Shown here: piece by piece, positions 36,880-54,681 of the stretch | Numbering within the stretch: the first letter of the stretch is position 1 | Layout of the letters: the number at the start of each line of letters is the position of its first letter | DNA from: an uncultured delta proteobacterium | GTDB lineage: Bacteria > Myxococcota > UBA727 > VGSZ01 | Length of the DNA: 64,000 nt | Assembly: GCA_963775425.1 (NCBI GenBank) | Contig: CAVZJB010000017.1 | Location: 224,001-288,000 of the forward strand | Direction of reading: 5' to 3' | Made by a program: the position numbers and the translations under genes | Notes under the pieces: model-generated | Seen by the model: the letters and a program-made list of their open reading frames with translations, nothing else | Told to the model about the DNA's origin: nothing | The model's database searches: none

Positions 36880-39357
36880 TCAGCGGACGGCGTACGTCGC
36901 GCGGTCGACGGGCTCCGCGACGCCGGGGAGATACAGCGCCACCGTGTGCGTGCCCGGGACCGCGTCGATCCACGTCGAAAACGGCGCGCGCAGCGTGAGG
37001 AGGTCGCCGCCGTCGGTGCGCACCAGGACCGTGTCGACGCCCGGCGGCGCGCGCACCTTCACGGGCACCCCCTGCCCTGCGGGCACCCCGGGCTCGCGCA
37101 GCAGCTCGTCGCCGTCGACGGGGCTCATGAACCGCGCGGCGGCGCGCACCGGCGGCCCGCGCGCGCCGCAGTCGCGAGCGCCGTCTTCGAGCGCCAGGCC
37201 CTCGGCGCGCGCCCACGCGGCGTAGCGCGGCTCGAACCTCAACGCGCGCACGCCGGGTGAGCAGCCGCCCGCGCCGTCGGCGACGATGTGGTGCGAGGCG
37301 CACGTCTCCGTGGGCGCCGTGCCTTTCAAGAAGTGCTCTTCGAAGGCGCCGGCGCACGCGGGGCCCGCGCGCTTGCCCGACAGCGGGCAGATCTTGACGG
37401 TGTCGAAGGCCGTGTCGTCGACCAGCGGCGCCGGGTGAACGCCCCGCATGGCCGCGAGCATCACGCGGCGAAAGATGACGCCGGCGCCGGTGATGCCCGA
37501 GACGTTCCGCATCGGAGTGCCGTCGAAGTTTCCGGCCCACACGGCCACGGTGCGCTCGTGGGTGAAGCCGGCCGTCCAGTTGTCGACGTACGCGCGGCTG
37601 GTGCCCGTCTTCGCCGCCACCGGGAACGGCAGCGACAGAGCGTTGTCGGGGCCGAACGCGGGCACGCGCGAGGGCTTGTCGATGAGGATGTCCGTGAGGA
37701 GCGCCACCGCGTCCCGCGGCAGGAAGCGCCGGGGCGAAGACGGCGCCGCGATCGGCAGCGCGCGACCGTCGCCGTCCTCGGCGCGCTCGACGTCGACGAG
37801 CGGGGACACGACGCCGCCGCGGGCGAGGCCGCGGTAGGCGCGCGCCATCTCGTACAGCTCGATGTCGCCGTCGCCGAGGACGATGCCGACGCCGTAGTGC
37901 TCGGGAGGCTCCGTGAGCGAGTCGAACCCCGCCGCGTGCAGCGTGTCGAGGATGCGCGCCGGGCCGAGCATCTCGGCCACGCGCACCGCGGGGATGTTGT
38001 AGCTGTTCTGCAGCGCCGCGCGCAGGCGCACCGGCCCGTGCACGCGCTTGTCGTAGTTGCGCGGCGAATAGGTGCCGGACTCGGTGGCGAGGTTCAGCTC
38101 GAGGTCGGGGATGAGCGTGGCGGGCGTCATGCCGTGCGAGAGCGCGAGCCCGTAGACGAACGGCTTGAGCGCGCTCCCCGGCTGCCGGCGCGCGCGGACG
38201 CCGTCGTTTTGGCCCTCGTGCGCGACGTCAAAGAAGTCGCGCGAGCCGGCGTAGGCGAGGACGTCGCCGGTCTTGTTGTCGATGACGACGACGGCGGCCT
38301 GGCCGACGCGCGCGGCGGCGAGGGGGCCGCCGAGCTCTTCGTCGATGACGCGCTCGACCTCGCGCTGCAGCGCGGGATCGATGGTGGTCTCGACGGTGAC
38401 GGCGCCGCCGAGCCCACGCGCGTCGAGGGACGCGAGGAGGGCGCTCGTGAAGTGCGGCGCCCGGAGGGAGGCGCGGGTGGCGTCGACATCGAGCGGCTCG
38501 TCGAGGGCGCGCGTGAGCGCGGCGGCGTCGAGCGCGCCGGGGACGTCGTTCATGCGCGCGAGCACGACGGCGCGCCGGCGCAGGGCGCGCTCGGGGTGAC
38601 GCAAAGGATCTTCGCGCGCGGGGGCGTGGGCGAGCCCGGCCAGGAGCGCGGCTTGCGCGGGAGAGAGCAGCCGCGCGGGGCGGCCGAAGTAGAAGCGGCT
38701 CGCGGCTTCGACGCCGACGACGCCGTTTCCGAGCGGGACGCGGTTCAGGTACTCGACGAGGATGCGCTCCTTGTCGAGGTGCGCCGACAACCGCAGCGCC
38801 CACAGCGCCTCCCACGCCTTGCCGGGGAGCGTGCGCGGCCGCGGCACCAGCCGCCGCGCGAGCTGCTGCTGGATGGTGGAGGCGCCGCTGGTGAAGCGGC
38901 CGGCGCCGGCGGAGTCGCGGACGGCGCGCGCGACGGCGCGCAGGTCGATCGGCAGCGCGCGCTCCTCGAAGCGCCGGTCCTCGGCCGCGAGGAAGGCGGC
39001 CTTCACGAGCGGCGGCACGCGATCGTCCTCGAGCGGGACGCTGCGCGCGCCGTCGGCGGCCGGGATCTCGCGAAGAGGATCGCCGTTGCGATCGAGGATG
39101 GCGAGCGACGTCACCGGCCGCCGCGCCAGCAGCGACGAGGACAGCGGCCACGCCACGAACGCCCCCGAGACGACGACGACGGCGGCGCACGCGCAGGCCA
39201 GCCCGCGCGCGATCCGGGCTCGAGTCACCCGGCGGAGCGCGCGCCACGGGGGCGCCCCCGTGGCGCCACCCGTCGTCGTGCGCGCGACGGTCGTCGTGGG
39301 CGCGACGGTCGTCGTGGGCGCGGCCTTCGTCGTGGCGCCCTCCGTCGGCGGGCTCAC
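36880..39357 (-). CDS. pbpC: Penicillin-binding protein 1C
   Basis: EDRRF, GASTIQQQL, PGSALKPF (SxxK), SYN, KTGTS; coupled to alpha-2-macroglobulin. Confidence 0.92.
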   Translation of the reverse strand: MSPPTEGATTKAAPTTTVAPTTTVARTTTGGATGAPPWRALRRVTRARIARGLACACAAVVVVSGAFVAWPLSSSLLARRPVTSLAILDRNGDPLREIPAADGARSVPLEDDRVPPLVKAAFLAAEDRRFEERALPIDLRAVARAVRDSAGAGRFTSGASTIQQQLARRLVPRPRTLPGKAWEALWALRLSAHLDKERILVEYLNRVPLGNGVVGVEAASRFYFGRPARLLSPAQAALLAGLAHAPAREDPLRHPERALRRRAVVLARMNDVPGALDAAALTRALDEPLDVDATRASLRAPHFTSALLASLDARGLGGAVTVETTIDPALQREVERVIDEELGGPLAAARVGQAAVVVIDNKTGDVLAYAGSRDFFDVAHEGQNDGVRARRQPGSALKPFVYGLALSHGMTPATLIPDLELNLATESGTYSPRNYDKRVHGPVRLRAALQNSYNIPAVRVAEMLGPARILDTLHAAGFDSLTEPPEHYGVGIVLGDGDIELYEMARAYRGLARGGVVSPLVDVERAEDGDGRALPIAAPSSPRRFLPRDAVALLTDILIDKPSRVPAFGPDNALSLPFPVAAKTGTSRAYVDNWTAGFTHERTVAVWAGNFDGTPMRNVSGITGAGVIFRRVMLAAMRGVHPAPLVDDTAFDTVKICPLSGKRAGPACAGAFEEHFLKGTAPTETCASHHIVADGAGGCSPGVRALRFEPRYAAWARAEGLALEDGARDCGARGPPVRAAARFMSPVDGDELLREPGVPAGQGVPVKVRAPPGVDTVLVRTDGGDLLTLRAPFSTWIDAVPGTHTVALYLPGVAEPVDRATYAVR

Positions 39358-42300
39358 GGCGCGACGACCTCAAAGGTGCCGCCGTCGGAGCGGCCCGAGG
39401 TCTCCGGGGCGTACATCTCCTCGGCCGTGGCCGGCTTCAAGACGAACGTCCCCGGCGTCGTCGCCCGCGCGGTGATCGACGTGGTGTGCACGCCCGGCGG
39501 CAGGTCGTCGGAGAAGAACACGGCGCGGTCGTCGCGCAGCTCGACGTGGTTGAACGGGCTCCACACGGCGTACTCCTCGCCCTCGCCCTCGCCCTCGTCG
39601 CCGTACTCACCGTCCTCGCCGCCCTCGCCGCCCTCGTCTCCCTCCTCGCCCGCCGGCGCGTGAGACGCCGTGGACGCAAGGCTCTCGTCGACGATCTCGA
39701 GGCCCGCCGGCAGCGGCACCTCCACCGCCACGAACTTTCGCTCCGCCGATGTCGCCACGCGCGCCTTCACGCGCACGAGCTCACCGGCGCGGACCTTCAA
39801 GGCGCGCCCCGTCCCGGGCGCGGTGCTCCACGGCTCGAACCAGCGCTGCACCGCGATGCCCGCGTCGAGCGGCGTGGTGGGCATCTCCTTCTTCGCGTAG
39901 CGCAGCGCGGCGGTGTAGCTGAGCGTGCCCGAGCCCGTCTTTTCGAACACGAGCGGCGCCTGCCCGCCGGCGCCGAGCGCGCTCATCGGCACGAGCTTCT
40001 CGAAGATGTCGAGGCTGCGACCGTCGAAGCGCTGCGTGATGAGCGGCTTCCCCGCCAGCGAGACCGTCGCCTCGAAGCGCGGCGGCTCATGCTCCTTGGC
40101 GCGCACCACCTCCGTCAGCGCCATCAAGGCGAACGCCGCCTCCTGCGTGCTTCGATAGCGCCCGCCCTTGCGCTCCGTGCCGAGCCAATGCGCGATCTTG
40201 CCGACGAAGGGATGGTCGGGCTCACCGTCGACGAGCGTCATCAGCACCACCGCCGACGTCCGCACGTCGCTCGACCAGTAGCTGCTCCAGCGCCGCGGGT
40301 CCGTCTCCTCGAAGTGCACGTCGCGCGCGGTCTCCTTGGCCCCGTTCATCACCTCCTGCAACAAGACGCCCGCGCGCTCGTCGTCGGCCTTGCCCACGTA
40401 GCTCGCGTCCGCGAGCATCGCCTTGGCGAACAGCGGCAGGTCCGCGCGCTTGTCGAAGAGCCCCTCGATGAAGCTGTTCTTCGGCTCCCCGGTGCGCGCC
40501 AGCGCCCACACCGCGAACGCCCGCTCCACGAGGCTCGCGTGCCGCTGCCAGCCGCACGAGGGCAAACGATCGGCGGCCACCTTGGTCGCGAGGAACCTCT
40601 TCGCCTTGCTCACGGCGGAGTCATCGACGGCATAGCCGAGCTCCTTGGCCCGAGAGAGGGCGAGCGTGGCGTACGACGACGCCCACGGGTCGCTGCACGA
40701 CGACGAGCCCCAGTAGCGGAAGCCGCCGTCGTCGCTCTGCAGGTCCTCGAGCGCACGCACCGTCTTGTCCGCGACGCGGTCGGGGTCCGGCACGCCGCCG
40801 GCGGCGTCGGCGTCGAGCCCCAGCCAGTGCGCCGTTCGTTGCTGCTCGGCGTCGCCGCCCTTGTGCGGCACACCGAACGCGCCCTCCAGCTCACGCAGCG
40901 CCATGAACGGCACCAGGCGCGACGAGAGCTGCTCGGCGCAGCCGTAGGGATACGCGACCAACTGCTCGAGCGCGTCCTGGTAGCCGGCGAGCGCCGTGGA
41001 CGCCAGGCTCACCTGGAGGCCACCCACGCCGGGGTAGACCCCCGCCGGCGGCGCCAGCGCCTCCTCGCGCTTTCCGTCCGTGTCGCCGGTGGCGGCCACC
41101 GTCTCCATCACCATGGGGAGCACCACGGGCAAGAGGTGCTCCACGCCGTCCCGCTCGCCGCCTCCGATGACCTCGAAGCGCAGCCGCGCCGTCCCCGGCG
41201 ATTTGGCCGCGAACGAAAACCGCACCTCGCGCGCGCGGCCGGCCTCGACGCGCACCGTCTGCTCCGGCGGCCCGTCGAGCGCGAGCCCTTGCGCGTCCAC
41301 CTTCACCTTCACGTCGCCGGCCTGCTGCGCGTGCACGATCACGCCCGCGGAGAACGTGTCGCCGACGCGCGCGAGGCGCGGCAGCGCCGGCAACGCGAGC
41401 AGCGGCTTCTGCACGACGATGTCGGTGCGCCCGGAGCCCGCGCGATCGCCCTCGGTGACGGCCAGCGCCATCACGCGGTAGGTGGTGAGGTCGTCCGGGA
41501 GCTTCACCTCCACCTCGGCGCGGCCCTGTTCGTCCGTCTCCACCTGGGGCACGAAGAACGCCGTGGTCTTGAAGTTGGAGCGGAAGCCGCCGCCGACGCC
41601 GGCGCCGCCGTCGCCGCCGGGGGGCCTGCCCTTCTCGCCGTAGCGCTGCTTCTTGATGAGGAAGATCAGCGGCTCACCGAGCCGCACGCTCAAGCCGCGC
41701 GGCGGGTGAATGGCCGCCACGGGATCGGGCACGCTGTAGTCCGTCAAGCGCAGCACGGCCTCGTCCACCGCCCACAGCGCGACCTCCGCGGGCGCGCCGT
41801 GGCCCTCGAAGTCCTTCACCGCGATCTTGAGCTTGAGCTTCTCGCCCGGCCGGTGCGTGCCCGCGCCCGCGTCGACGGCGACGTCGAGCCGCTTCTCCCG
41901 CTTGTCGACCTCGAGCTTCGCGTACCCGACGCGCACCTGCGGCCTGCCCGGGTCCGCCTCACGCGCGGCGGCCGACGCGGCGTCCTTCGGGCTCGCGGCG
42001 TCGTCGGGGACGCGGCCCCGGACGACGACGACGCTCACGAACACGTTCGGCACCATGCCGTCGGTGATGGGGATGTCCACGGTGCTCGACGGCGACACCT
42101 TCTGCCGCCGGGTCCACAGCACGCCCTCACGCTCGACGGTGACGAGCGCCTCCGCGTCGGGCCACGGGCTCTTCACGAGCACCCTGGCGGTGTCGCCCGC
42201 CTCGTAGAGCTTCTTGTCCGCGACGAGGTCGATCTGGTCGCCGTCGGTGCGCTGCCAGCTCACCCAGGCGCCGCCCACGACGTAGGTCGACGTGGTGGTG

Positions 42301-45248
42301 GTCTGCTTCCTGCCGTGATCGTCGGTGGCCGTGGCCTCGATGATGTAGAGGCCGGCGCGTTCGGGGGTGACGTCGCAGCCGACGTCGGCGGAGGCGTCGC
42401 TCACCTTGCTGCACGTGGAGACCGGCGTCTCCTGCGGCTCGCTCATGGTGATGAAGCGGCCCGTGTCCGGGTCCTTCTTCTTGATGCTCTTCCACTCGCG
42501 CCGCTTGACCGCCACCTCGATGTGGGTCCCCGCCACGCGCTGTCCATCGACGCCGACGGCGATGAGCCCGATGTGCAGCGGCTTGTTGACCTCCCCGAAG
42601 CCATCCCCCGTGCGGACGCCCGCGTACACCGAGGCGGGGTGCACGATGACGCGCGCGCGGTTGGCCACCCGTTGCCGGCTCACGTCCTCGACCTCGGACT
42701 CGATCTCGTACGCCACCGTCCGGCCGGCGACCGCCTCGGTCTCGCCGACGTCGACGGCGAGGGTGCCGTCGGCGCCGACGTCGTCGCTCTTCCTGAAGAC
42801 CACCGCCGACGCGCCCTCGGGCTCGCCGTCGTCGAAGCCCCACACGTTCTTGCCGAACGCGTACTCGTCGAAGCCCTCAGGCGTGAAGTCCGCCGTCTCG
42901 CGCACCACCGTGGTGTCCACGTGGGCTCCGGGCATGGCGCCGCCGAAGAGGTAGCGCGCGTCGACGTGGGCGATCAGGTGCTCGCCCGCGACCACCGCAG
43001 GCCTCTCGGTGGTGACGTCCACCTTGAACTTGGGCGCGCGGTACTCCTCCACGCGAAACGACGTCGACAGGTCGATCTCTTTCCCCGCCACCGTGGCGCT
43101 CGCGGCGAGCTCGTGCCAGCCGAGCGAGCCTCCTTCGGGCAGCTTGACCTTGGTGCTGAACGTGCCGAAGCGCGTGAGGGGCACGTCCTGCTTGGCGACC
43201 GTCTTGCCGTATGTCCTCACCTCGACGTGCACCTCGCTGTCGATCTTCGGGAGCGAGATGACGCCGCGGCGGCGCAGGCGGACCACGCCCTTGATGTCCA
43301 CCTCGTCACCGGGGCGATAGATCCCGCGCTCCGTGGCGACGAAGCCGAGCGCGCGCGGCACGTCTCCGTCGAAGTCGACGTCCATCCCGGCGCTCGAGGG
43401 GCCGATCTCGCCCTCCCACGACGAGAACGACACGCCCGTGTCGCCGTCCTTCTGCGCGGACACGAGCACCTCGGGCGCGGAGTAGTAGCCTTCGATGTTG
43501 CTGCCGGCGACCAGGTCGGCGAGGCCCTTCACGTGCGCGATGCCGTCGTCATCGCTGGTCTCGCTCTCGAGCGCTTTTCCGTGCGTGTCGTAGAGCGTGA
43601 CGGTGGCGCCGGCCACCGGCGCGCCCTTGGACAGCGACGTCACCCACACCACGCCGCTCGTGGCGCCGAGCTTCGCGTGCGCGACCAGGTCCGTGATCTG
43701 CCCGAGCACGTAGCTCGGCTCGTGGCCCACCTCGGGCGCGATGAGCGCGAGGCGGAAGAGCTTGGGCGCGCCCGAGGGCAGGAGCGCGCCGAGCTTCAGC
43801 GGCACGCGCACCGCCACGTTGCGTTCGGCGGAGGTGTCGACGGTGGTGGCGATGGCGTCCTTGCCCACCACGTGGGCGCGCGGATCGCGCATGAGCCCCG
43901 CCATCTCCGCGGGCAGGAGCGGCAACACCGAGACGCGCACCTCGTCGACGTTGACGGCCTCGACGGGATAGCTGTCGTCGCCGCCGCCCTCGATGAGCGC
44001 CAGCGAGCTGTCGACGCGCAGGTCCGGCTCGACGTCGTCGAGCTTGAACGTCCCCGAAAACGCCGGCGCCTCCTGGCCGAGCGCGTCCTTCACACCGGCG
44101 TCGACGACGATCTTGTAGTGGAGCCCCGGGCGGAAGCGCGCCTGGATGCTGGCGGTGGCGCCGTCGTGCACCGAGGTGCGCGAGCCGATCTCGTCGTCGT
44201 CGATGACCGCGGGCGGATCGAAGTGCACCTTGCCCAGCAAGCTCTCGACGTCGGGCTCGTTGGTGGCCTGGAGGACCACGGGCCCGTACGGACACGTCTC
44301 GCGCCACGACTCGCACGCGCGGACGCCCGTGAAGCGCATCGCGCCCGCCACGGCGAAGGAGAGCTGCTTGGGCTCGGCGGTGATGGGTCCTTCCTTGCCG
44401 GCGAGGCTGCCGTCGACGGAGACCGTGAGCTTCTCACCCGACGCGAGCGTGGCCTTGGGCTTCAGCACGTAGCGCGTCTCCCGGCCCCACGACGAGCGCG
44501 CCGGCGGCGCCGCGTGCTGCTTCTTGGCGCGCTCGGCCTCGACGTCGACGACGTCGACGACGTCGTAGGCGACGGGCTTGCCGCCGCTTTTGATGGTGAC
44601 GTGACGCGCGAAGTCGTCGGCCATCGGCTGGTTGAAGACGAGCGCGATCTTCCCGTCCGGCGGGAGCCAGCGCCAACCGGCCTCGGGGTCGCTGCGCACG
44701 ACGCGCGGGTGCACGGTCTCGAAGGAGAAGGTGTAGGGCTTTTGGAGCTTCTCGCCGTCGACGGCGACGAGGCCGTCGCCCAGCGTGACGGTGAATTTGG
44801 TGGCGTAGGGGAGCACCTCGTCGGGAGCGAATTCGATGCTCGACGAGCCGATCCACTTCCACGCGCCCTTCACCGCGGGCTCGATCCGCGCCTGCGGCGG
44901 CTTGGCGGCGTCGCGGTCGCCGAGCGCCACCACGGGCTTGTTGAAGGTGACCGCGGGGCGCGCGCCGCTGCTGTTGACGCCTTGCGGGCGCGCGACGACG
45001 ACGGTGAGCGGACCCGCGGGGATGCCGGCGAACGCGCCGCTTTGGATGTGGACGGCGGGCGGCTCGGGGAGGGGCAGCAGCTCGAGGGGCTCCTTTTCCG
45101 CGGGGACCTTGAGCGTGTCGGTGTGCGCGAGGTCGGGCTCCTGCTTGCCGCAGCGGTTGCATGAGACGGCCGTCGCGAGCGATGCGGTGACGACGGCGAC
45201 GACGGCGAAGCGATGACGGCGAGCGTGCACGTGGACCCCCGGATGCAT
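39354..45248 (-). CDS. Bacterial alpha-2-macroglobulin family lipoprotein
   Basis: TERGIYRPG, FRVEEY, LPDDLTTYRV, thioester YPYGCAEQ, RSTQE, AEEMYAPETSGRS. Confidence 0.95.
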   Translation of the reverse strand: MHPGVHVHARRHRFAVVAVVTASLATAVSCNRCGKQEPDLAHTDTLKVPAEKEPLELLPLPEPPAVHIQSGAFAGIPAGPLTVVVARPQGVNSSGARPAVTFNKPVVALGDRDAAKPPQARIEPAVKGAWKWIGSSSIEFAPDEVLPYATKFTVTLGDGLVAVDGEKLQKPYTFSFETVHPRVVRSDPEAGWRWLPPDGKIALVFNQPMADDFARHVTIKSGGKPVAYDVVDVVDVEAERAKKQHAAPPARSSWGRETRYVLKPKATLASGEKLTVSVDGSLAGKEGPITAEPKQLSFAVAGAMRFTGVRACESWRETCPYGPVVLQATNEPDVESLLGKVHFDPPAVIDDDEIGSRTSVHDGATASIQARFRPGLHYKIVVDAGVKDALGQEAPAFSGTFKLDDVEPDLRVDSSLALIEGGGDDSYPVEAVNVDEVRVSVLPLLPAEMAGLMRDPRAHVVGKDAIATTVDTSAERNVAVRVPLKLGALLPSGAPKLFRLALIAPEVGHEPSYVLGQITDLVAHAKLGATSGVVWVTSLSKGAPVAGATVTLYDTHGKALESETSDDDGIAHVKGLADLVAGSNIEGYYSAPEVLVSAQKDGDTGVSFSSWEGEIGPSSAGMDVDFDGDVPRALGFVATERGIYRPGDEVDIKGVVRLRRRGVISLPKIDSEVHVEVRTYGKTVAKQDVPLTRFGTFSTKVKLPEGGSLGWHELAASATVAGKEIDLSTSFRVEEYRAPKFKVDVTTERPAVVAGEHLIAHVDARYLFGGAMPGAHVDTTVVRETADFTPEGFDEYAFGKNVWGFDDGEPEGASAVVFRKSDDVGADGTLAVDVGETEAVAGRTVAYEIESEVEDVSRQRVANRARVIVHPASVYAGVRTGDGFGEVNKPLHIGLIAVGVDGQRVAGTHIEVAVKRREWKSIKKKDPDTGRFITMSEPQETPVSTCSKVSDASADVGCDVTPERAGLYIIEATATDDHGRKQTTTTSTYVVGGAWVSWQRTDGDQIDLVADKKLYEAGDTARVLVKSPWPDAEALVTVEREGVLWTRRQKVSPSSTVDIPITDGMVPNVFVSVVVVRGRVPDDAASPKDAASAAAREADPGRPQVRVGYAKLEVDKREKRLDVAVDAGAGTHRPGEKLKLKIAVKDFEGHGAPAEVALWAVDEAVLRLTDYSVPDPVAAIHPPRGLSVRLGEPLIFLIKKQRYGEKGRPPGGDGGAGVGGGFRSNFKTTAFFVPQVETDEQGRAEVEVKLPDDLTTYRVMALAVTEGDRAGSGRTDIVVQKPLLALPALPRLARVGDTFSAGVIVHAQQAGDVKVKVDAQGLALDGPPEQTVRVEAGRAREVRFSFAAKSPGTARLRFEVIGGGERDGVEHLLPVVLPMVMETVAATGDTDGKREEALAPPAGVYPGVGGLQVSLASTALAGYQDALEQLVAYPYGCAEQLSSRLVPFMALRELEGAFGVPHKGGDAEQQRTAHWLGLDADAAGGVPDPDRVADKTVRALEDLQSDDGGFRYWGSSSCSDPWASSYATLALSRAKELGYAVDDSAVSKAKRFLATKVAADRLPSCGWQRHASLVERAFAVWALARTGEPKNSFIEGLFDKRADLPLFAKAMLADASYVGKADDERAGVLLQEVMNGAKETARDVHFEETDPRRWSSYWSSDVRTSAVVLMTLVDGEPDHPFVGKIAHWLGTERKGGRYRSTQEAAFALMALTEVVRAKEHEPPRFEATVSLAGKPLITQRFDGRSLDIFEKLVPMSALGAGGQAPLVFEKTGSGTLSYTAALRYAKKEMPTTPLDAGIAVQRWFEPWSTAPGTGRALKVRAGELVRVKARVATSAERKFVAVEVPLPAGLEIVDESLASTASHAPAGEEGDEGGEGGEDGEYGDEGEGEGEEYAVWSPFNHVELRDDRAVFFSDDLPPGVHTTSITARATTPGTFVLKPATAEEMYAPETSGRSDGGTFEVVAP

Positions 45249-46884: not shown

Positions 46885-47553
46885 TCAACCGCCGCCGAAC
46901 CGCTCGTCGACGACGCGCTGGGTGAAGACCCGGCGCAGGTAGAACCCCTGCGGGGGCGCGCGATAGGCGACGCCGGCGACGTCGGTGGCGCTGCGCTCGA
47001 CGCGGGCGTCGCGCGCCTTCGGGCGGAGCTGCAGGAAGCGGCCGCGGCGTGCGGTGACGGCGAAGCCGAGGCCGTGGGCGACGAGGTCGGCGAGGTCTTC
47101 CCAGTCGGCGCGCAGCGCGCGCTCGTCGTCCTCCCCGGGGCTCCACAAGAAGGCCGTTCCCACGCGGCGCTGCTCGCCGCGCGCCTCCACCGGAACGAAC
47201 AGCACGCGCGCGAGCTTCGCCCGCGCCCGCGACGTCGCCCACGTCTCTTCCTTGATGCTCTCGGGCGAGGCGCTGCACACCCACGTGGACTCGACGACGC
47301 GGCCGCCGTCGACGGGCAGCGTCTTCACCTCCACGCCGGCGGCGGCGAAGTCCGGCCCGGGTGCGCTCGAGCGCGGCAGCCCGAGCGCCCGCTCGACGAG
47401 CTCGCCGACGCCGCCCTTGCCCACCGCCACGCCGAGCGACGACACGGTCCGCCCGGCGAGGGCGTGCGCGCGGGCGAGGATCTCGACCTCGTCGACGACC
47501 TCCTCGACGACGTCCTCGACGACGGCCTCGACGGTGATCACGGCGCGCGCCAC
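46885..47553 (-). CDS. mutH: MutH/Sau3AI-family endonuclease, closely MutH-like
   Basis: KGGVGELVERALG, PDF...GVEVKTLPVD (PD-D/ExK), ESTWVC, W.TS...KL.RVLFVPVE, LWSP, DWEDL, TARRGRFLQLRPKA, GFYLRRVFT, co-linear with E. coli MutH as I recall it. Confidence 0.88.
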   Translation of the reverse strand: MARAVITVEAVVEDVVEEVVDEVEILARAHALAGRTVSSLGVAVGKGGVGELVERALGLPRSSAPGPDFAAAGVEVKTLPVDGGRVVESTWVCSASPESIKEETWATSRARAKLARVLFVPVEARGEQRRVGTAFLWSPGEDDERALRADWEDLADLVAHGLGFAVTARRGRFLQLRPKARDARVERSATDVAGVAYRAPPQGFYLRRVFTQRVVDERFGGG

Positions 47554-49842: not shown

Positions 49843-50283
49843 TCAGCCACGCACTTCGATGCGCGTCTCGCCGATGCGGATGAGGTCCCCGAGCGCGAGC
49901 TCGGCCGACGGGATGCGCTTGCCGTTCAGGAACGTGCCGTTGGTGGACGCCATGTCGAGCAGCGAAGCGCCGGCCTCGTCGACGAAGACCATGGCGTGGC
50001 GCTGGGAGACCGAGTCGTCCTGGAGGCCGACGTCGGTGTCGCGCTCGAAGCTCGTGAGCAGCGCGCGCGCGCCGGCGTTCTTGGGCGTGGCGCGGATCTT
50101 CAGGTGGCGGGTGACTGCCTTTTCGTCTTCGTCGGACAGGCGGTGCGACGAGTGCTGCGTGATCATGCCCGTGGCGCCGATGAGGGTCTGGCTGCGCCCC
50201 ACCATCACGCAGTGCCCGACATTGACCACAATGGAGCGGCCGAAGTCCTTTCCTTTGACCACGACGAGGACGGCGCGTTTCAT
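49843..50283 (-). CDS. FHA domain protein
   Basis: VGRS, VSQRHA, DMASTNGTFLNG, GDLIRIG. Confidence 0.9.
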   Translation of the reverse strand: MKRAVLVVVKGKDFGRSIVVNVGHCVMVGRSQTLIGATGMITQHSSHRLSDEDEKAVTRHLKIRATPKNAGARALLTSFERDTDVGLQDDSVSQRHAMVFVDEAGASLLDMASTNGTFLNGKRIPSAELALGDLIRIGETRIEVRG

Positions 50284-51827
50284 ACGGTCTTCGAACCTAC
50301 ACCAAACGAGCCTGGGCGGATACCGAGCCTGCGCAGGAGGCGTTCGACCTCGGCCCAGGCGCCCGTCTCCTTCTCCTCGTCGCTCGTGGCCCCGACGAAG
50401 CCCTCGAGGCGCTCGCGCAACGCGCGCTCGCCCGGAGTCAACACGCCGTCGTAGCGCCGATCACCGAGGTGCGCCGTGGCCGCCGCCGCCTGCTGCGCCA
50501 TGCGATCGAGGAAGATGTCCACGAGGCGCGCCTGCTCCGCGAGGGAGCCGGCGAACGTGATCCAATCGAGGTCGCCGCCCCACAGCTCCTCGGCCAGCGG
50601 GTTCGGCTCGACGACGAGCGTGGTGCCGAACTTGCCGGGCCCGATGGACTGGCGCACGGCGTGGGCGATGCGGTGGAAGTTGTCGTCGGTAAAGGAGAAG
50701 CCGACGAAGAGCATGTGCCGTGTGAGCAGCAGCGCCTGCACGATGCCGGCGAGCGCGGTGCGGTTCTCCTGGAACTTCAGGTAGTCCTCGCGCGTGAGCA
50801 CGATGGTCTCGGGCTTGGTCACGCTGCCGTGCATCTTCAACAACCAGCGCTGCCCGCGCGCGACCTCGCCGCCCGGCAGCACCGTCACCGGGCGCTCCAC
50901 GGCGAGCGACGCCCGCTCGAAGAGGTCGTCGTAGTTGGTGGTGATGACCTCGTCGACGGGCAGGCTCGCGAGGAGCCCGTGGCCGAGCGCGTGGCGCCGC
51001 GCCCGCTCCCGCAGGAGCGCGGCGACGACCGCGCCGAGCGGCTCCTGATCGTGCAGCCGGCGTTGAATCACGGCGGCGCGATCGAGCTCGCCGAGCTGGG
51101 CGAGCGCCGCCTTGGTGGCCGCGTCGTCGACGCCGGCGCGCTCCTCGGCGAGGTCTTCGAGCATCGTGGTCCACGACGGCAGCCCGGCCCCCTGGCTGAC
51201 ACCCGCGCCGAGGAAGACGACGAGGTCGCCGCTCCTGGCCTTGCTCGCGAGGGCGTCGGCGGCGGCGAGCTGCCCGGGCGACAGCGTCGCCCACGTCTCG
51301 ATGGCGGCGCGCTCGTGTTGCGCCGCCGCCCACGCGGGGCCGTCGCGCAGCACGAGGGCGACGTCGACGTCTGCGGCCTCCGCCTCCTCGTGCAGCGCCG
51401 GCAGGAGCAGCCGCACCACCTCGCCCGAGAGCCGGGCGCCGCCGCCGCCGCCGGTGCCCGCGAGCGGCAGCGCGAGCAGGTGCTTGTGGCGGCCGAACAG
51501 CGGCGCGCGCTTCTTGTCGCGGAGCACGCGCGCCGCGAGCTGAACGAAGTGACGCGCGCCTTCGACGTACCAGGGGGGGCCGTCGCGTTTTGTGCCGATG
51601 ACGTCGGTGAGAAACGGCAGGGGCTCCGTGGGGGAGACCTCGGCGAGCAGCCGCGCTCGCGGCCGGCCCTCGTCGGACCAGCCGGCGGGCAATTCCAGCC
51701 AGGCCTCCTGCGGCGGGAGCGCGGTGCGCCAGCTCTCTCCCGGCGAGCGTTCGCTGCCCGGGACGAGCCACGCGTCGCACGTGAGCTGCATCAAGTCGCC
51801 GCGGAGCACGAACACGTGGGAGCGCAT
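50280..51827 (-). CDS. Macro-like domain + SIR2 (SIR2_2-type) fusion protein
   Basis: SIR2: VFLGAGVS..AGLPSW, ITTNYD, LLKMHGS, LTREDY, LFVGFSFTDDNF. N-terminus: GDLMQLTCDAWLVP and ALPLAGTGGGG resemble macrodomain GDIT..DA and P.I.TG..G motifs. Confidence 0.85.
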   Translation of the reverse strand: MRSHVFVLRGDLMQLTCDAWLVPGSERSPGESWRTALPPQEAWLELPAGWSDEGRPRARLLAEVSPTEPLPFLTDVIGTKRDGPPWYVEGARHFVQLAARVLRDKKRAPLFGRHKHLLALPLAGTGGGGGARLSGEVVRLLLPALHEEAEAADVDVALVLRDGPAWAAAQHERAAIETWATLSPGQLAAADALASKARSGDLVVFLGAGVSQGAGLPSWTTMLEDLAEERAGVDDAATKAALAQLGELDRAAVIQRRLHDQEPLGAVVAALLRERARRHALGHGLLASLPVDEVITTNYDDLFERASLAVERPVTVLPGGEVARGQRWLLKMHGSVTKPETIVLTREDYLKFQENRTALAGIVQALLLTRHMLFVGFSFTDDNFHRIAHAVRQSIGPGKFGTTLVVEPNPLAEELWGGDLDWITFAGSLAEQARLVDIFLDRMAQQAAAATAHLGDRRYDGVLTPGERALRERLEGFVGATSDEEKETGAWAEVERLLRRLGIRPGSFGVGSKTV

Positions 51828-51857
51828 GGCGACGGATCTACCGCGCCCGGGCCGCGC

Positions 51858-51900
51858 TTGACTTCAATGCATGGTGCATATATGTTCTATGCATATATGC
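51858..51900 (+). promoter_or_regulatory. Sigma70-type promoter overlapped by palindromic operator
   Basis: TTGACT(51858)-17 bp-TATGTT(51881); inverted repeat GCATATATG-N7-CATATATGC (51876-51900) covers the -10 and the nrtR start codon. Confidence 0.8.
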
Positions 51901-52601
51901 CGAGAGCATCAAAGTCCCTGAGCGCGTTCCCCCGGCCGTCGGTGGCCGTGGACGTGGTGGCGATGACCGTCGAGAGCGGCGCGCTCCACGTGGCGCTCTA
52001 CAAGCGCACGGAGCCGCCCCAGCGCGGGCACTACGCCCTGCCCGGCGGCTTCGTGCGCATCGACGAGTCGCTCGACGACGCCGCGGCCCGCTTGCTCGCG
52101 CAAAAGGCGGGGTTCACCGACGTCTTCCTCGAGCAGCTATACACGTTCGGCGACCTCCGCCGCGACCCGCGCGGCCGCGTCATCGCCGTCACCTACTACG
52201 CCCTCGTCGACGCCGCCCGCTTCCGGAACAAGACGTGCGTCGATGCGCGCGTGACGGTGCCTTGGCCGGGCGAGACCGGCGGCCCCGTCGACGTCGTCGG
52301 CGACGACGGCGCGCCGCTGCAGCTCGCGTTCGATCACGCGGACATCCTCGGCCTCGCGGTCAAGCGGCTGCGCGGCAAGCTCGACTACTCGCCCGTCGGC
52401 TTCCAGCTCCTGCCCGCGGAGTTCACGCTCCGCCAGCTTCAGGAGATCCACGAGGCCGTCCGCGGTGACGAGCTCAACAAGGACTCGTTTCGGCGGCGCA
52501 TGTTGACCTCGGGTGTGCTCGAGGCCACGGGCGCGCGCGAGCGCGACGTGCTGCACCGGCCCGCCGAGCTCTATCGGTTCGTGCGGAGGAGCGCCGTGTA
52601 G
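51897..52601 (+). CDS. nrtR: NrtR-family regulator (degenerate Nudix + winged HTH)
   Basis: PSVAVDVV, LPGGFV..DESL..AAARLLAQKAG (Nudix RE/EE lost), LEQLYTFG...RDPRGRVI, LAFDHADI, FTLRQLQ..HE, KDSFRR, HRPAELYRF. Confidence 0.9.
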   Translation: MPRASKSLSAFPRPSVAVDVVAMTVESGALHVALYKRTEPPQRGHYALPGGFVRIDESLDDAAARLLAQKAGFTDVFLEQLYTFGDLRRDPRGRVIAVTYYALVDAARFRNKTCVDARVTVPWPGETGGPVDVVGDDGAPLQLAFDHADILGLAVKRLRGKLDYSPVGFQLLPAEFTLRQLQEIHEAVRGDELNKDSFRRRMLTSGVLEATGARERDVLHRPAELYRFVRRSAV

Positions 52602-52691
52602 GAGGGAGCGATGGGAACAAGACAGCAGCCGATGACAACAAAACGCATCGAGCCGGCCCTGGTGCCGGCGAGGACGGGAGGGAGGAACACC

Positions 52692-53714
52692 ATGGCGGAG
52701 ATCAGGTCCTTCGTTTTCGTGCGCCACCTGCGGGCCGAGCCCACCACGCACGTGTTGTTCTTCCGCGGCGGCGCGCTGCGCGCGAGCGGCCGCGGGCTCG
52801 CTTTGTGGTTCTCGCCGCTCGGGGCGTCCATCGCGCAGGTCCCCCTCGATGACCGCGAGCTCCCGTTCCTGTTTTCGGGGCGGTCGGCGGACTTCCAGGA
52901 CGTCGTGGTGAACGGCGTCGTGACCTTCCGGGTGAGGGACCCGGAGCTCCTCGCGTCGCGCGTGGACTTCTCCATCGACACGCGCACGGGCCTCTTCAAC
53001 AAGGAGCCGCTCGACAAGCTGGCGCTCGTCGTCAAGGAGCTGTCGCAGCAGCTCGCGTCGTCCTTCCTGAACCGAACGCCGCTCAAGACCATCCTCGACC
53101 AGGGCATCGAGGTCATCCGCGACGCCATCCACGTGGGCCTGGTCACCGACGAGGGCGTCGGCGCGCTCGGCCTCGAGATCGTGTCCACGCGCATCTCGTC
53201 GGTGAAGCCCACGAGCGAGATGGAGAAGGCGCTGCAGATGCCGACGCGCGAGCGGATCCAACAGGCGGCCGACGAGGCGACCTTCGGGCGGCGGGCGCTG
53301 GCGGTGGACAAGGAGCGCGCCATCCAGGAAAACGAGCTGTCGAACCAGATCGAGCTCGCGCGCCGCGAGGAGCAGCTCATCGCGCAGCGCGGACAAAACG
53401 AGAGGAAGCGCGCCACCGAGACGGCCGAGTCCAAGCGCATCGAGGTCGAAGCGGCGGCGCACAACGTGAAGCTGAACGCGGCGGCGCAGGCGGAGAGCAT
53501 CAAGGTGCTCGAGGACGCCAAGGTCGTCGCCGAGCGCGAGCGCATGGACATCTACCGCGACCTGCCGCCCGCGGCGCTCATGGGCCTCGCCGCCCGCGAG
53601 CTCGCCGGCAAGCTGCACAACATCGAGCACCTGAGCCTCACCCCCGACATCCTCGGCTCGCTCCTGCAGCGCGTGCTCGGCGCCGGTGCGGACAAGCTCG
53701 AGCGCGACGCGTAG
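52692..53714 (+). CDS. SPFH/band-7 domain protein with coiled-coil C-terminus
   Basis: DFQDVVVNG.VTFRV.DP, QQAADEATFGRRALAVDKERAIQENEL, LNLT-like LSLTPD. GGAGG RBS at 52681; alternative in-frame ATG at 52611. Confidence 0.85.
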   Translation: MAEIRSFVFVRHLRAEPTTHVLFFRGGALRASGRGLALWFSPLGASIAQVPLDDRELPFLFSGRSADFQDVVVNGVVTFRVRDPELLASRVDFSIDTRTGLFNKEPLDKLALVVKELSQQLASSFLNRTPLKTILDQGIEVIRDAIHVGLVTDEGVGALGLEIVSTRISSVKPTSEMEKALQMPTRERIQQAADEATFGRRALAVDKERAIQENELSNQIELARREEQLIAQRGQNERKRATETAESKRIEVEAAAHNVKLNAAAQAESIKVLEDAKVVAERERMDIYRDLPPAALMGLAARELAGKLHNIEHLSLTPDILGSLLQRVLGAGADKLERDA

Positions 53715-53781: not shown

Positions 53782-54681
53782 ATGTCCAGGTCCCTTCCGC
53801 CGAGAGCCGTCGTCGTCACCAGGCCCACCGAGCTCGAGGCGCTCCTGCTCCACCACGGCACGCGCGAGCAGGCGCGCTTCTTCCTCGAGACGCGCGGGCG
53901 CAAGCTCGACGAGGTCGTCGACCGCCACGAGACCCAGGAGCGGGCCCTTCACGCGGTGGCGGCGCAGGTCCCCATGGCGTGGCGGCGGGCCAAGGTGTCC
54001 CGCGCCGAGCTCGATCGCTTCCTGTTCGAGCCGGAGGACGTCGTCATCGCCGTGGGCCAGGACGGGCTCGTCGCCAACGTCGCCAAGTACCTCGACGGGC
54101 AGGTCGTCGTCGGCGTCAACCCGTCGACGTCGCTGTACGACGGCGTCCTCGTGCGCCACCCGCCCCCCGCCGTCGCGGACCTGCTCGCCATGAACGCGCG
54201 CGGCGCCCTGGCCGTCGAGGAGCGCTCCATGGTGCGGGCGAGCACGGCGGACGGTTCGAGCCTGGTGGCGCTCAACGAGATCTACGTCGGTCACCGCACA
54301 CACCAGAGCTCGCGCTACACCCTCGCCGTCGCCGGCCGGGCCGAGCGCCACTCGTCGTCGGGGCTCATCGTGTGCAGCGGCACGGGCGCCACCGGCTGGG
54401 CGAAGAGCGTGTCGCTGCGGCGCCAGGGCTGCCCTGCCCTGCCCGAGGCAACGTCGACCACGCTCGCGTTCCTCGTGCGCGAGGCGTGGCCGAGCGTCGC
54501 CACCGGCGCCGAGCTCGTGCACGGCCTGCTGAAGCAAAGCGACGAGATCATCGTCACATCGGAGATGAACGAGGACGGCGTGGCCTTCGGGGACGGCATC
54601 GAGGACGACAACCTCGCGCTGCCCTACGGCCAGGTCGTCACCCTGCGGCGCGCCGAGCAGGCGCTGAGGTTGGCGGCATGA
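53782..54681 (+). CDS. NAD-kinase-fold protein (GQDG variant)
   Basis: VIAVGQDGLVANVAKY, VGVNP, ALNEIYVG, SSGLIVCSGTGATGW, FGDGIEDD. Confidence 0.85.
   Translation: MSRSLPPRAVVVTRPTELEALLLHHGTREQARFFLETRGRKLDEVVDRHETQERALHAVAAQVPMAWRRAKVSRAELDRFLFEPEDVVIAVGQDGLVANVAKYLDGQVVVGVNPSTSLYDGVLVRHPPPAVADLLAMNARGALAVEERSMVRASTADGSSLVALNEIYVGHRTHQSSRYTLAVAGRAERHSSSGLIVCSGTGATGWAKSVSLRRQGCPALPEATSTTLAFLVREAWPSVATGAELVHGLLKQSDEIIVTSEMNEDGVAFGDGIEDDNLALPYGQVVTLRRAEQALRLAA

Follow-up and report, generated by a model that had tools for sequence, protein, structure and literature searches.

SIR2-type enzymes that cleave nicotinamide adenine dinucleotide (NAD+), or NADases, are common effectors in bacterial immunity. 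In the SIR2 systems compared here, the trigger comes either from a separate sensor or signal maker (TIR, Argonaute or HerA proteins) or, as in DSR2, from a large sensor that is part of the effector chain itself. ThsA, the effector of Thoeris, is a SIR2-SLOG protein in type I and carries a transmembrane (TM) domain followed by a macro domain in type II, an assignment that was given in an earlier note on the DNA studied here and that agrees with the accessible text of Shi et al. (2024) and Yirmiya et al. (2025). According to the available sections of the former, the macro domain of type II ThsA is a binding-only sensor of ligands of the adenosine diphosphate ribose (ADP-ribose) type. The window analysed here, a stretch of 64,000 nucleotides from contig CAVZJB010000017.1 of an uncultured delta proteobacterium, encodes a protein in which a macro domain and a predicted SIR2 NADase share a single chain (macro-SIR2). 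This is a real, widespread pairing that nobody seems to have studied. ADP-ribose itself is a possible signal for so compact a protein of 515 residues with no TIR protein beside it, either as the enzyme's own product or as the mark left by a viral ADP-ribosyltransferase. The gene and its two domains are located as follows.

50280..51827, minus strand: macro-SIR2 gene P0001, an ATG-to-TGA open reading frame (ORF) of 515 residues
51294..51827, minus strand: macro-fold domain, residues 1-~178 (profile, AlphaFold2 model, Foldseek, VIA-align)
50328..51242, minus strand: SIR2 domain (SIR2_2, ThsA/DSR2/KomC-like) with C-terminal helices, residues ~196-500 (Pfam, PADLOC, PDB profile, Foldseek)

By sequence profile and structural model, residues 1 to ~178 form a macro fold with its three alpha/beta/alpha layers. 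The motifs GDL (residues 10-12), DA (18-19) and PLAGTGGGG (121-129), for which the first ~190 residues had been called macro-like in the earlier note, are present and are not chance look-alikes. A profile of 66 sequences (alignment A2, residues 1-192, taken from the window and related genome loci) found the macroH2A of Capsaspora (7ny6_A, E = 7.5e-8) on top of the PDB, as well as vertebrate macroH2A1.1 (1yd9, E = 8.3e-4; 1zr3, E = 2.3e-3) and, more weakly, TTHA0132 and the alphavirus nsP3 macro domains (E = 0.08-1). The check by AlphaFold and Foldseek that the note had proposed also returned a macro fold. Residues 1-192 alone were modelled with a predicted local distance difference test (pLDDT) of 93.0 and a predicted template modelling score (pTM) of 0.88, and this model has 115 matches in the PDB at E <= 0.001. 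The 32 listed among them are macro domains, macro fusion constructs or designed hydrolases with no fold in their title, and the macro-fold matches have a probability of 1.0 at E = 9e-7 and below.

Superposition with VIA-align gave Z scores of 14-16.7 over 150-164 residues. The closest structure is YmdB (Z 16.7, 2.8 Å, 158 residues), and high scores were also obtained for the MacroD of Oceanobacillus (Z 16.3), the second macro domain of PARP9 (Z 15.9) and macroH2A1.1 (Z 15.5); these four superpose over about 155-164 residues at a root-mean-square deviation of 2.5-3.1 Å. In the ESM Atlas, the best scores of residues 1-192 (0.79-0.82) lie under the threshold for a usable match, so that the Macro and ThsA_Macro clusters included there are a lead only.

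In macro domains, an aspartate at the end of strand 2 touches the adenine of ADP-ribose, and the glycine-rich loop 2 touches its phosphates. In the alignment of the A2 profile, D18 pairs with the aspartate of the '..DAVVHPTN' strand of macroH2A1.1, and G124-G129 pairs with its 'GSGRNG' loop. The key residues of the domain are D18, P23, W33, R113, the G124-G129 loop, D155 and R173. Among 212 full-length family members, D18, G129 and R173 are kept in every one and R113, G124 and D155 in 211. Loop 125-128 is the sole internal stretch with a pLDDT below 50 in the full-length model, as might be expected of a ligand loop modelled without its ligand. The catalytic loop 1 of MacroD-type hydrolases reads Asn...Gly-Gly-x-Asp and follows strand 2-3. 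No such loop was found in alignments A1 and A2, in which the residues following P23 (PGSERSPGESW in this protein) are variable except for W33. The macro domain of macroH2A1.1 is itself a binder and has no hydrolase activity. Judged by these residues, the domain is probably of a non-catalytic, binding type with an altered pocket; R113, D155 and R173 could also provide a new catalytic arrangement.

Pfam places SIR2_2 at residues 293-410 (E = 1.4e-29) and shows nothing convincing elsewhere in the protein. The SIR2 part of the PADLOC ThsA model covers residues 195-395 (E = 1e-33), only positions 15-212 of the 478 in that profile being matched, and weaker PADLOC matches were obtained with PDC-S25, LmuA, Dsr1/2 and Argonaute-associated SIR2 models. 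When a family profile of 36 sequences was compared with the PDB, it found ThsA (7uxt, E = 8.5e-31; 6lhx, E = 4.6e-29), as well as DSR2, KomC and FAM118B, and gave E = 0.21 for the SirTM structure 5a3a. Foldseek, used with the full-length model, placed KomC, ThsA and DSR2 on top (E = 5e-13 to 1e-11; ThsA 8e-13). The helices after residue 410 lie within the Foldseek-aligned span of the KomC and ThsA SIR2 folds and, since the KomC, ThsA and DSR2 alignments cover them, are counted as part of the SIR2 module.

The key residues of this domain are the G207-x-G209 NAD loop, N298, D300 and H333. In a pairwise alignment, N298 and H333 correspond to N112 and H152 of ThsA, and mutation of either abolishes NAD+ cleavage according to the available part of Ka et al. 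(2020). G207, G209 and D300 are kept in all 212 family members, N298 and H333 in 211. The domain thus looks catalytically intact, as had been proposed from its first reading, and looks like a member of the defence-NADase clade. On the family alignment, both halves of the protein are under strong constraint, because their key residues are kept in 211 or 212 of the 212 members.

The whole 515-residue protein was modelled by AlphaFold2 with a pLDDT of 91.9 and a pTM of 0.92, and because of the latter value the model suggests that the macro and SIR2 domains are packed against each other in a fixed manner. A 19-residue hydropathy scan revealed no membrane-helix-like segment; the highest value, 1.59, belongs to residues 359-377, inside the Rossmann core of the model. 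Canonical deacylase sirtuins contain a Cys4 zinc module. The macro-SIR2 protein has a single cysteine and therefore lacks this module. Its gene has a third-position GC content (GC3) of 0.93, matching that of the adjacent genes, in a genome of 71.9% GC, and occurs in one copy in the 8.26-Mb assembly (18 contigs, 94.5% complete).

Macro-SIR2 shares with the type I ThsA of Bacillus cereus (PDB 6lhx and 8bto) the SIR2_2 clade and the fusion of a nucleotide-binding domain to an NADase. In contrast to ThsA, whose sensor is a C-terminal SLOG domain, the presumed sensor here is an N-terminal macro domain, and no ThsB/TIR gene accompanies it. Past the SIR2 core no SLOG domain was found; the helices there belong to the part aligned with the KomC and ThsA SIR2 folds. 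With type II ThsA, the protein has the macro domain in common as a type of sensor, whereas the effector is a SIR2 NADase instead of a membrane domain, and a TM segment, a TIR partner and a match to Pfam ThsA_Macro are all missing. Lacking SLOG, TM segment and ThsB, macro-SIR2 was not accepted as a member of Thoeris. The absence of a TIR or Argonaute partner, which the earlier note had stressed, held wherever it was searched for: none occurs among the 14 ORFs at 39354-62385 of the window, Pfam detected no TIR or Piwi domain among 95 flanking ORFs, called as immediate neighbours in 56 of 80 related loci, and TIR_2 has no match across the 94.5%-complete genome.

A functional tie between a sirtuin and a macro domain is also known from the SirTM-macrodomain systems of class M sirtuins. 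There, however, the two are separate genes, a sirtuin that acts as ADP-ribosyltransferase and a macro domain that acts as eraser, whereas here they form one fused chain. The class M type was rejected, given the E-value of 0.21 for 5a3a versus 8.5e-31 for ThsA. The macro domain here also lacks the MacroD loop. DSR2 and KomC provide, by the same Foldseek comparison (E = 5e-13 to 1e-11), the nearest folds for the catalytic domain. DSR2 differs in its C-terminal phage-protein sensor of ~700 residues and KomC in that its structures are KomBC complexes, some with deoxyinosine triphosphate (dITP); neither has a macro domain. Membership in DSR1/DSR2 was rejected on the NCBIfam scores, 24 bits for Dsr1 and 41 bits for Dsr2 against cut-offs of 1400 bits.

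Upstream of the macro-SIR2 gene, and divergent from it, lies a gene for an NrtR-type regulator. A spacer of 69 bp (51828-51896) separates their start codons and holds an operator-like motif.

51897..52601, plus strand: NrtR-family regulator of 234 residues, with a degenerate Nudix domain and a winged helix (Pfam NrtR_WHD, E = 1.1e-22; NUDIX, E = 6.1e-9)
51863..51900, no strand assigned: operator-like AT-rich palindromic motif, two TGCATATATG copies 15 nucleotides apart
51858-51886, plus strand: sigma-70-like promoter TTGACT-17-TATGTT for the NrtR gene, from a promoter scan, overlapping the TGCATATATG repeats

The NrtR gene is concealed in a plus-strand shadow ORF of 710 residues (50469-52601) and was exposed by a homology search with the NrtR proteins of other loci. 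Its product matches the NCBIfam model 'ADPR responsive transcriptional repressor' with 158 bits, under the cut-off of 400 bits. The Nudix box reads G-G-x5-E-x7-R-L-L-A-Q-K and, compared with the canonical box, which contains a catalytic pair of glutamates, lacks this pair. In the part of the literature available to us, NrtR regulators respond to ADP-ribose and control NAD metabolism. The 18-mer GCATATATGCACCATGCA is identical in the matching spacer of locus L002, whose macro-SIR2 protein is 59% identical, and near-identical in locus L082. Across the 8.26-Mb genome, GCATATATGC occurs once and CATATATG twice, always in this spacer. Because the motif is confined to this place, it looks like a dedicated operator and not like a site of a global regulon. 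The ATG of the NrtR gene lies ~10 nucleotides past the predicted -10 box, and its mRNA may be leaderless.

An anti-viral ADP-ribose system centred on ADP-ribosylglycohydrolase (ARG), which would act against viral ADP-ribosylation, has been predicted in section 3.8 of Iyer et al. (2022, PMC9503650). It joins ARG to a Nudix or WYL repressor that senses ADP-ribose and to genes for a phosphatase, ARPP and chaperones. In the accessible passages, this survey starts from ARG genes to which no sirtuin is coupled, 'Macro' being an occasional variable add-on, and the text of that section and those passages does not describe a macro-SIR2 fusion. No study of the fusion was found in the literature, although supplements (e.g., of Iyer et al. 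2022, or Table S1 of the Yirmiya et al. preprint) or Figure 7 of Iyer et al. could list the architecture. The sole trace comes from the available part of the FAM118 paper, where a figure legend gives some sirtuins of a tree the label 'Macro'.

Relatives of macro-SIR2 are numerous. A word-seeded protein search, in which 8000 candidates were scored and the 120 best listed, gave 809 proteins at E <= 0.001. SIR2_2 is present in all 120 listed proteins, 119 of which are 470-620 residues long; one 388-residue fragment apart, they cover 96-100% of the query, at identities down to 42%. A profile of the N-terminal domain, run on 1.84 billion cluster representatives (50% identity), found 1670 clusters at E <= 0.001 and 556 at <= 1e-30. 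Among the best 150 of these 1670, no case of a macro domain fused to another effector was seen. Ninety-seven have 470-620 residues, four have 621-999, six have at least 1000, and 43 are shorter than 400 residues and may be fragments or stand-alone domains. In the ten that exceed 620 residues, Pfam shows SIR2_2 only.

Six long relatives (P0122, P0123, P0127, P0224, P0246 and P0265; 1028-1693 residues) have the macro stretch twice or three times, and in four of the six the SIR2_2 stretch also occurs twice. They look like tandem fusions of two or three whole macro-SIR2 units, although gene-calling artefacts may be involved. Such tandems hint that the unit works as an oligomer and are the only sign of self-association. 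A homodimer prediction with two copies of residues 1-498 (alignment A1) reached 0.07 and 0.01, the mark being 0.42, which speaks neither for nor against oligomerisation.

In a survey of one genome per species, at least 281 stretches encode relatives, and the best 80 were analysed as loci. These 80 come from Myxococcota and other 'Deltaproteobacteria', Planctomycetota, Actinomycetota, Chloroflexota, Rokubacteria, Gemmatimonadota and others. Within the order of the window's genome, the gene was found in 7 of 38 genomes and, within its family, in five of ten other genomes at 54-63% identity. The distribution is patchy, though many of the assemblies are incomplete. One genome (G035) carries two diverged copies on separate contigs (L133 and L136), 60% and 38% identical to the query.

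The neighbourhoods of the 80 loci were compared on the basis of crude gene calls, by which small or masked genes may be missed, and the neighbour counts overstate independent associations, the loci being phylogenetically non-independent. All-against-all clustering of the flanking ORFs within 4 kb yielded no family in more than 12 of the 80 loci, and a universal partner gene was therefore rejected. The recurring theme of the neighbourhoods is ADP-ribose biology. NrtR-type genes are present in the fetched flanks of 13 of the 80 genome loci, and of 2 of 19 metagenome loci with the macro part; they span Myxococcota, one metagenome-assembled genome of Pseudomonadota, Gaiellales and several Actinomycetota. 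ARPP-1 adjoins the gene in 11 loci, ARG in nine (one of these ARG proteins being fused to a dual-specificity phosphatase domain), TY-Chap2 in three and REase-ARP in one. Taken together, at least one of these five families, all of which belong to the ARG-centric system with its Nudix regulator, adjoins macro-SIR2 in 20 loci. The window differs from that system in having the Nudix regulator alone, with no ARG or ARPP nearby; the ARG genes of this genome lie on other contigs.

Downstream of the NrtR gene, two further genes follow on the same strand, and the resulting trio recurs next to macro-SIR2 in L002/L130, L082 and L090, and in part in the short locus L022.

52611..53714, plus strand: SPFH/Band-7 gene of 367 residues, 9 nucleotides past the NrtR gene (Pfam Band_7, E = 1.8e-12)
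53782..54681, plus strand: NAD-kinase-like gene of 299 residues from the likely ATG (PDB NADK2, 7r4j, E = 2.5e-9)
L002, 2900-5161: span bearing the trio in a related locus
L082, 91-2919: span bearing the trio in a related locus
L090, 6220-8172: span bearing the trio in a related locus

No TM-like segment was found in the SPFH/Band-7 protein. The closest solved relative of the NAD-kinase-like protein is the mitochondrial NAD kinase NADK2; its matches to the NCBIfam NAD kinase models are far under the cut-off, and Pfam gives no match. We know of no function for the NrtR/SPFH/NAD-kinase-like trio. A second, independent link to a kinase of NAD-kinase-like fold is observed in three other loci, where a DAGK_cat/YegS-type kinase gene overlaps the start of the macro-SIR2 gene.

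L011, 5084-5992: DAGK_cat/YegS-type kinase gene
L019, 712-1617: DAGK_cat/YegS-type kinase gene
L024, 1638-2543: DAGK_cat/YegS-type kinase gene

The claim of a single-chain fusion without partners therefore stands for the fusion and for the lack of TIR and Argonaute. It was too strong for this locus, in which macro-SIR2 is accompanied by genes for FHA-domain, NrtR, SPFH and NAD-kinase-like proteins and by the operator-like motif of NrtR, and for the family, in which a quarter of the related loci carry an ARG/ARPP/Nudix-regulator context.

From these observations, macro-SIR2 is proposed to be a switch for conflict or defence, in which a ligand of the ADP-ribose type acts twice, on the macro domain to gate the NADase and on NrtR to induce the gene; we hold this to be about evenly poised between right and wrong. 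NADase activity, ligand binding, activation as opposed to inhibition, repression by NrtR and the role in defence are all parts that we infer. The protein would be a soluble single-chain enzyme, its macro domain being the binding site for ADP-ribose or a close derivative and the control element of a SIR2 domain of ThsA/DSR2/KomC type, which would hydrolyse NAD+. The NrtR-type repressor would act on the gene by way of an operator in the 69-bp spacer, so that ligands of one class would lift repression by NrtR and, at the macro domain, gate the enzyme. Free or protein-linked ADP-ribose, for example after viral ADP-ribosylation, would thereby cause NAD+ to be drained. As the product of the SIR2 reaction would be ADP-ribose, the circuit could amplify itself, provided that the ligand is an activator of the enzyme and NrtR a repressor of the gene, or limit itself, should the ligand be an inhibitor.

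The proposal of a macro domain that senses ADP-ribose-type ligands is strengthened by its context, because D18 and the glycine loop are kept, the MacroD loop is not, and an NrtR gene is the divergent neighbour. A role in conflict is favoured by the ARG/ARPP context, the patchy distribution and the occasional defence neighbours. The divergent NrtR-type gene and the genome-unique motif would make up a simple two-level circuit. Macro-SIR2 is also a candidate effector, and a candidate link to NAD depletion, for the ARG/ARPP system that was predicted by comparative genomics (Iyer et al. 2022). The link to NrtR, ARG and ARPP, together with a circuit that can be tested, is the main value added by this locus. 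If the protein does serve in conflict, the drain of NAD+ would also rob viral ADP-ribosyltransferases of their substrate.

A more specific version, which we regard as unlikely, makes the system an ADP-ribosylation alarm. ADP-ribose, or a phosphorylated derivative of it produced through the NAD-kinase-like enzyme, would be read by both NrtR and the macro domain and would throw an all-or-none NADase switch by positive feedback. The extra phosphate of such a derivative would fit the invariant R113 and R173, and the drain of NAD+ would starve phage ADP-ribosyltransferases and at the same time yield more ADP-ribose. If true, this would be a TIR-independent counterpart of Thoeris, with a signal that comes from the invader or from the effector itself.

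Several observations weigh against a ligand-gated defence switch. In the macro domain, the canonical ADP-ribose site shows no conservation in its loop 1, and R113, D155 and R173 have no counterpart that can be named, so that the ligand may differ from plain ADP-ribose or the catalysis may be novel. Pfam recorded no Macro or ThsA_Macro family match in the protein, even at E <= 1. At the level of regulation, a simple scan found no minus-strand promoter, and the genome has two more NrtR_WHD genes. Among the neighbourhoods, 60 of the 80 loci have no neighbour from the ADP-ribose system, and some close relatives in the window's family sit between the housekeeping genes prmA and glk. Strong PADLOC matches to named defence genes are limited to four loci, with the Druantia gene DruE in L008 and L044, the Shango genes SngA/SngC in L047 and PDC-S11 in L018. 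Given the NAD-kinase-like gene and the housekeeping genes around some relatives, a metabolic role stays in play.

Such a metabolic role would make macro-SIR2 a regulated NAD+ consumer in a homeostasis module for NAD and NADP, formed with the NrtR, NAD-kinase-like and SPFH proteins and held back by ADP-ribose as inhibitory product, with no part in phage defence. We consider it doubtful, though worth serious thought. The cluster of these three genes adjoins macro-SIR2 in the window, L002, L082, L090 and in part L022, NrtR is known from the available literature as a regulator of NAD metabolism, and the codon usage of the macro-SIR2 gene is host-like. The relatives between prmA and glk agree with it, as does the DAGK/YegS-type kinase, of NAD-kinase-like fold, at the gene start in L011, L019 and L024. 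However, for a housekeeping gene, absence from 31 of the order's 38 genomes and from five of the family's ten other genomes would be odd. Its SIR2 clade is that of abortive-infection NADases, and a quarter of the loci belong to the predicted conflict system that includes ARG, ARPP, chaperones and a restriction-type nuclease. With an operator motif confined to this one spot of the genome, the NrtR here does not resemble a global regulator of NAD metabolism.

The accessible parts of Iyer et al. (2022, PMC9503650) and of the FAM118 paper describe two-gene macro-sirtuin systems that work as writer and eraser, and macro-SIR2 might unite both activities in one chain. The SIR2 domain would then ADP-ribosylate or deacylate a target, and an active macro domain would take the ADP-ribose off again or act as O-acyl-ADP-ribose deacylase. 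We find this improbable, even though YmdB and MacroD, two active hydrolases, are among the top structural matches and the invariant R113, D155 and R173 could make an unrecognised active site. The SIR2 profile sees SirTM (5a3a) only at E = 0.21, compared with 8.5e-31 for ThsA; the catalytic His is retained, the MacroD catalytic loop is not conserved, and the best sequence match of the macro domain is to macroH2A1.1, which binds and does not hydrolyse. A hydrolase fused one-to-one to its own writer would, moreover, be futile. It is also conceivable that macro-SIR2 is a Thoeris-type effector acting in trans, in answer to a signal (histidine-ADP-ribose or a cyclic ADP-ribose isomer) made by a TIR protein encoded elsewhere. 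In the available Thoeris literature, the macro domain of the type II effector binds histidine-ADP-ribose or ADP-ribose, and the type I effector has the same SIR2 clade. The lack of a TIR_2 match in the 94.5%-complete genome, of a TIR in the 95 ORFs that flank the gene in 56 loci and of any flanking family in more than 12 of 80 loci nevertheless makes this highly improbable.

Among the seven window neighbours of macro-SIR2, PADLOC gave no match. Further genes near macro-SIR2 in the window lie as follows.

49843..50283, minus strand: FHA-domain gene of 146 residues (Pfam FHA, E = 3.8e-14; GC3 0.92, host-like codon usage)
46885-47553, minus strand: MutH-like endonuclease gene
39354-45248, minus strand: bacterial alpha-2-macroglobulin of 1964 residues
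57712-62385, plus strand: AsmA/DUF748/TamB-like protein of 1557 residues

The ATG of the FHA gene shares four nucleotides (ATGA) with the stop codon of the macro-SIR2 gene. No homologue of the FHA protein was found in any of 135 related loci; the gene is therefore taken as a local addition, specific to this genome, and was rejected as a conserved partner. Ser/Thr kinase genes flank macro-SIR2 in Polyangium (L021 and L054) and in L029, so that phospho-signalling may recur, as with the FHA gene. The arrangement in Polyangium (L021 and L054; also L014 and L017 by clustering) consists of an upstream Ser/Thr kinase-AAA_16 protein of ~1300 residues, whose gene overlaps the macro-SIR2 gene with its end, macro-SIR2 itself and a downstream patatin-like phospholipase of ~750 residues. 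The alpha-2-macroglobulin, MutH-like and AsmA/TamB-like genes seem unrelated to macro-SIR2 and point to a diderm, GC-rich host.

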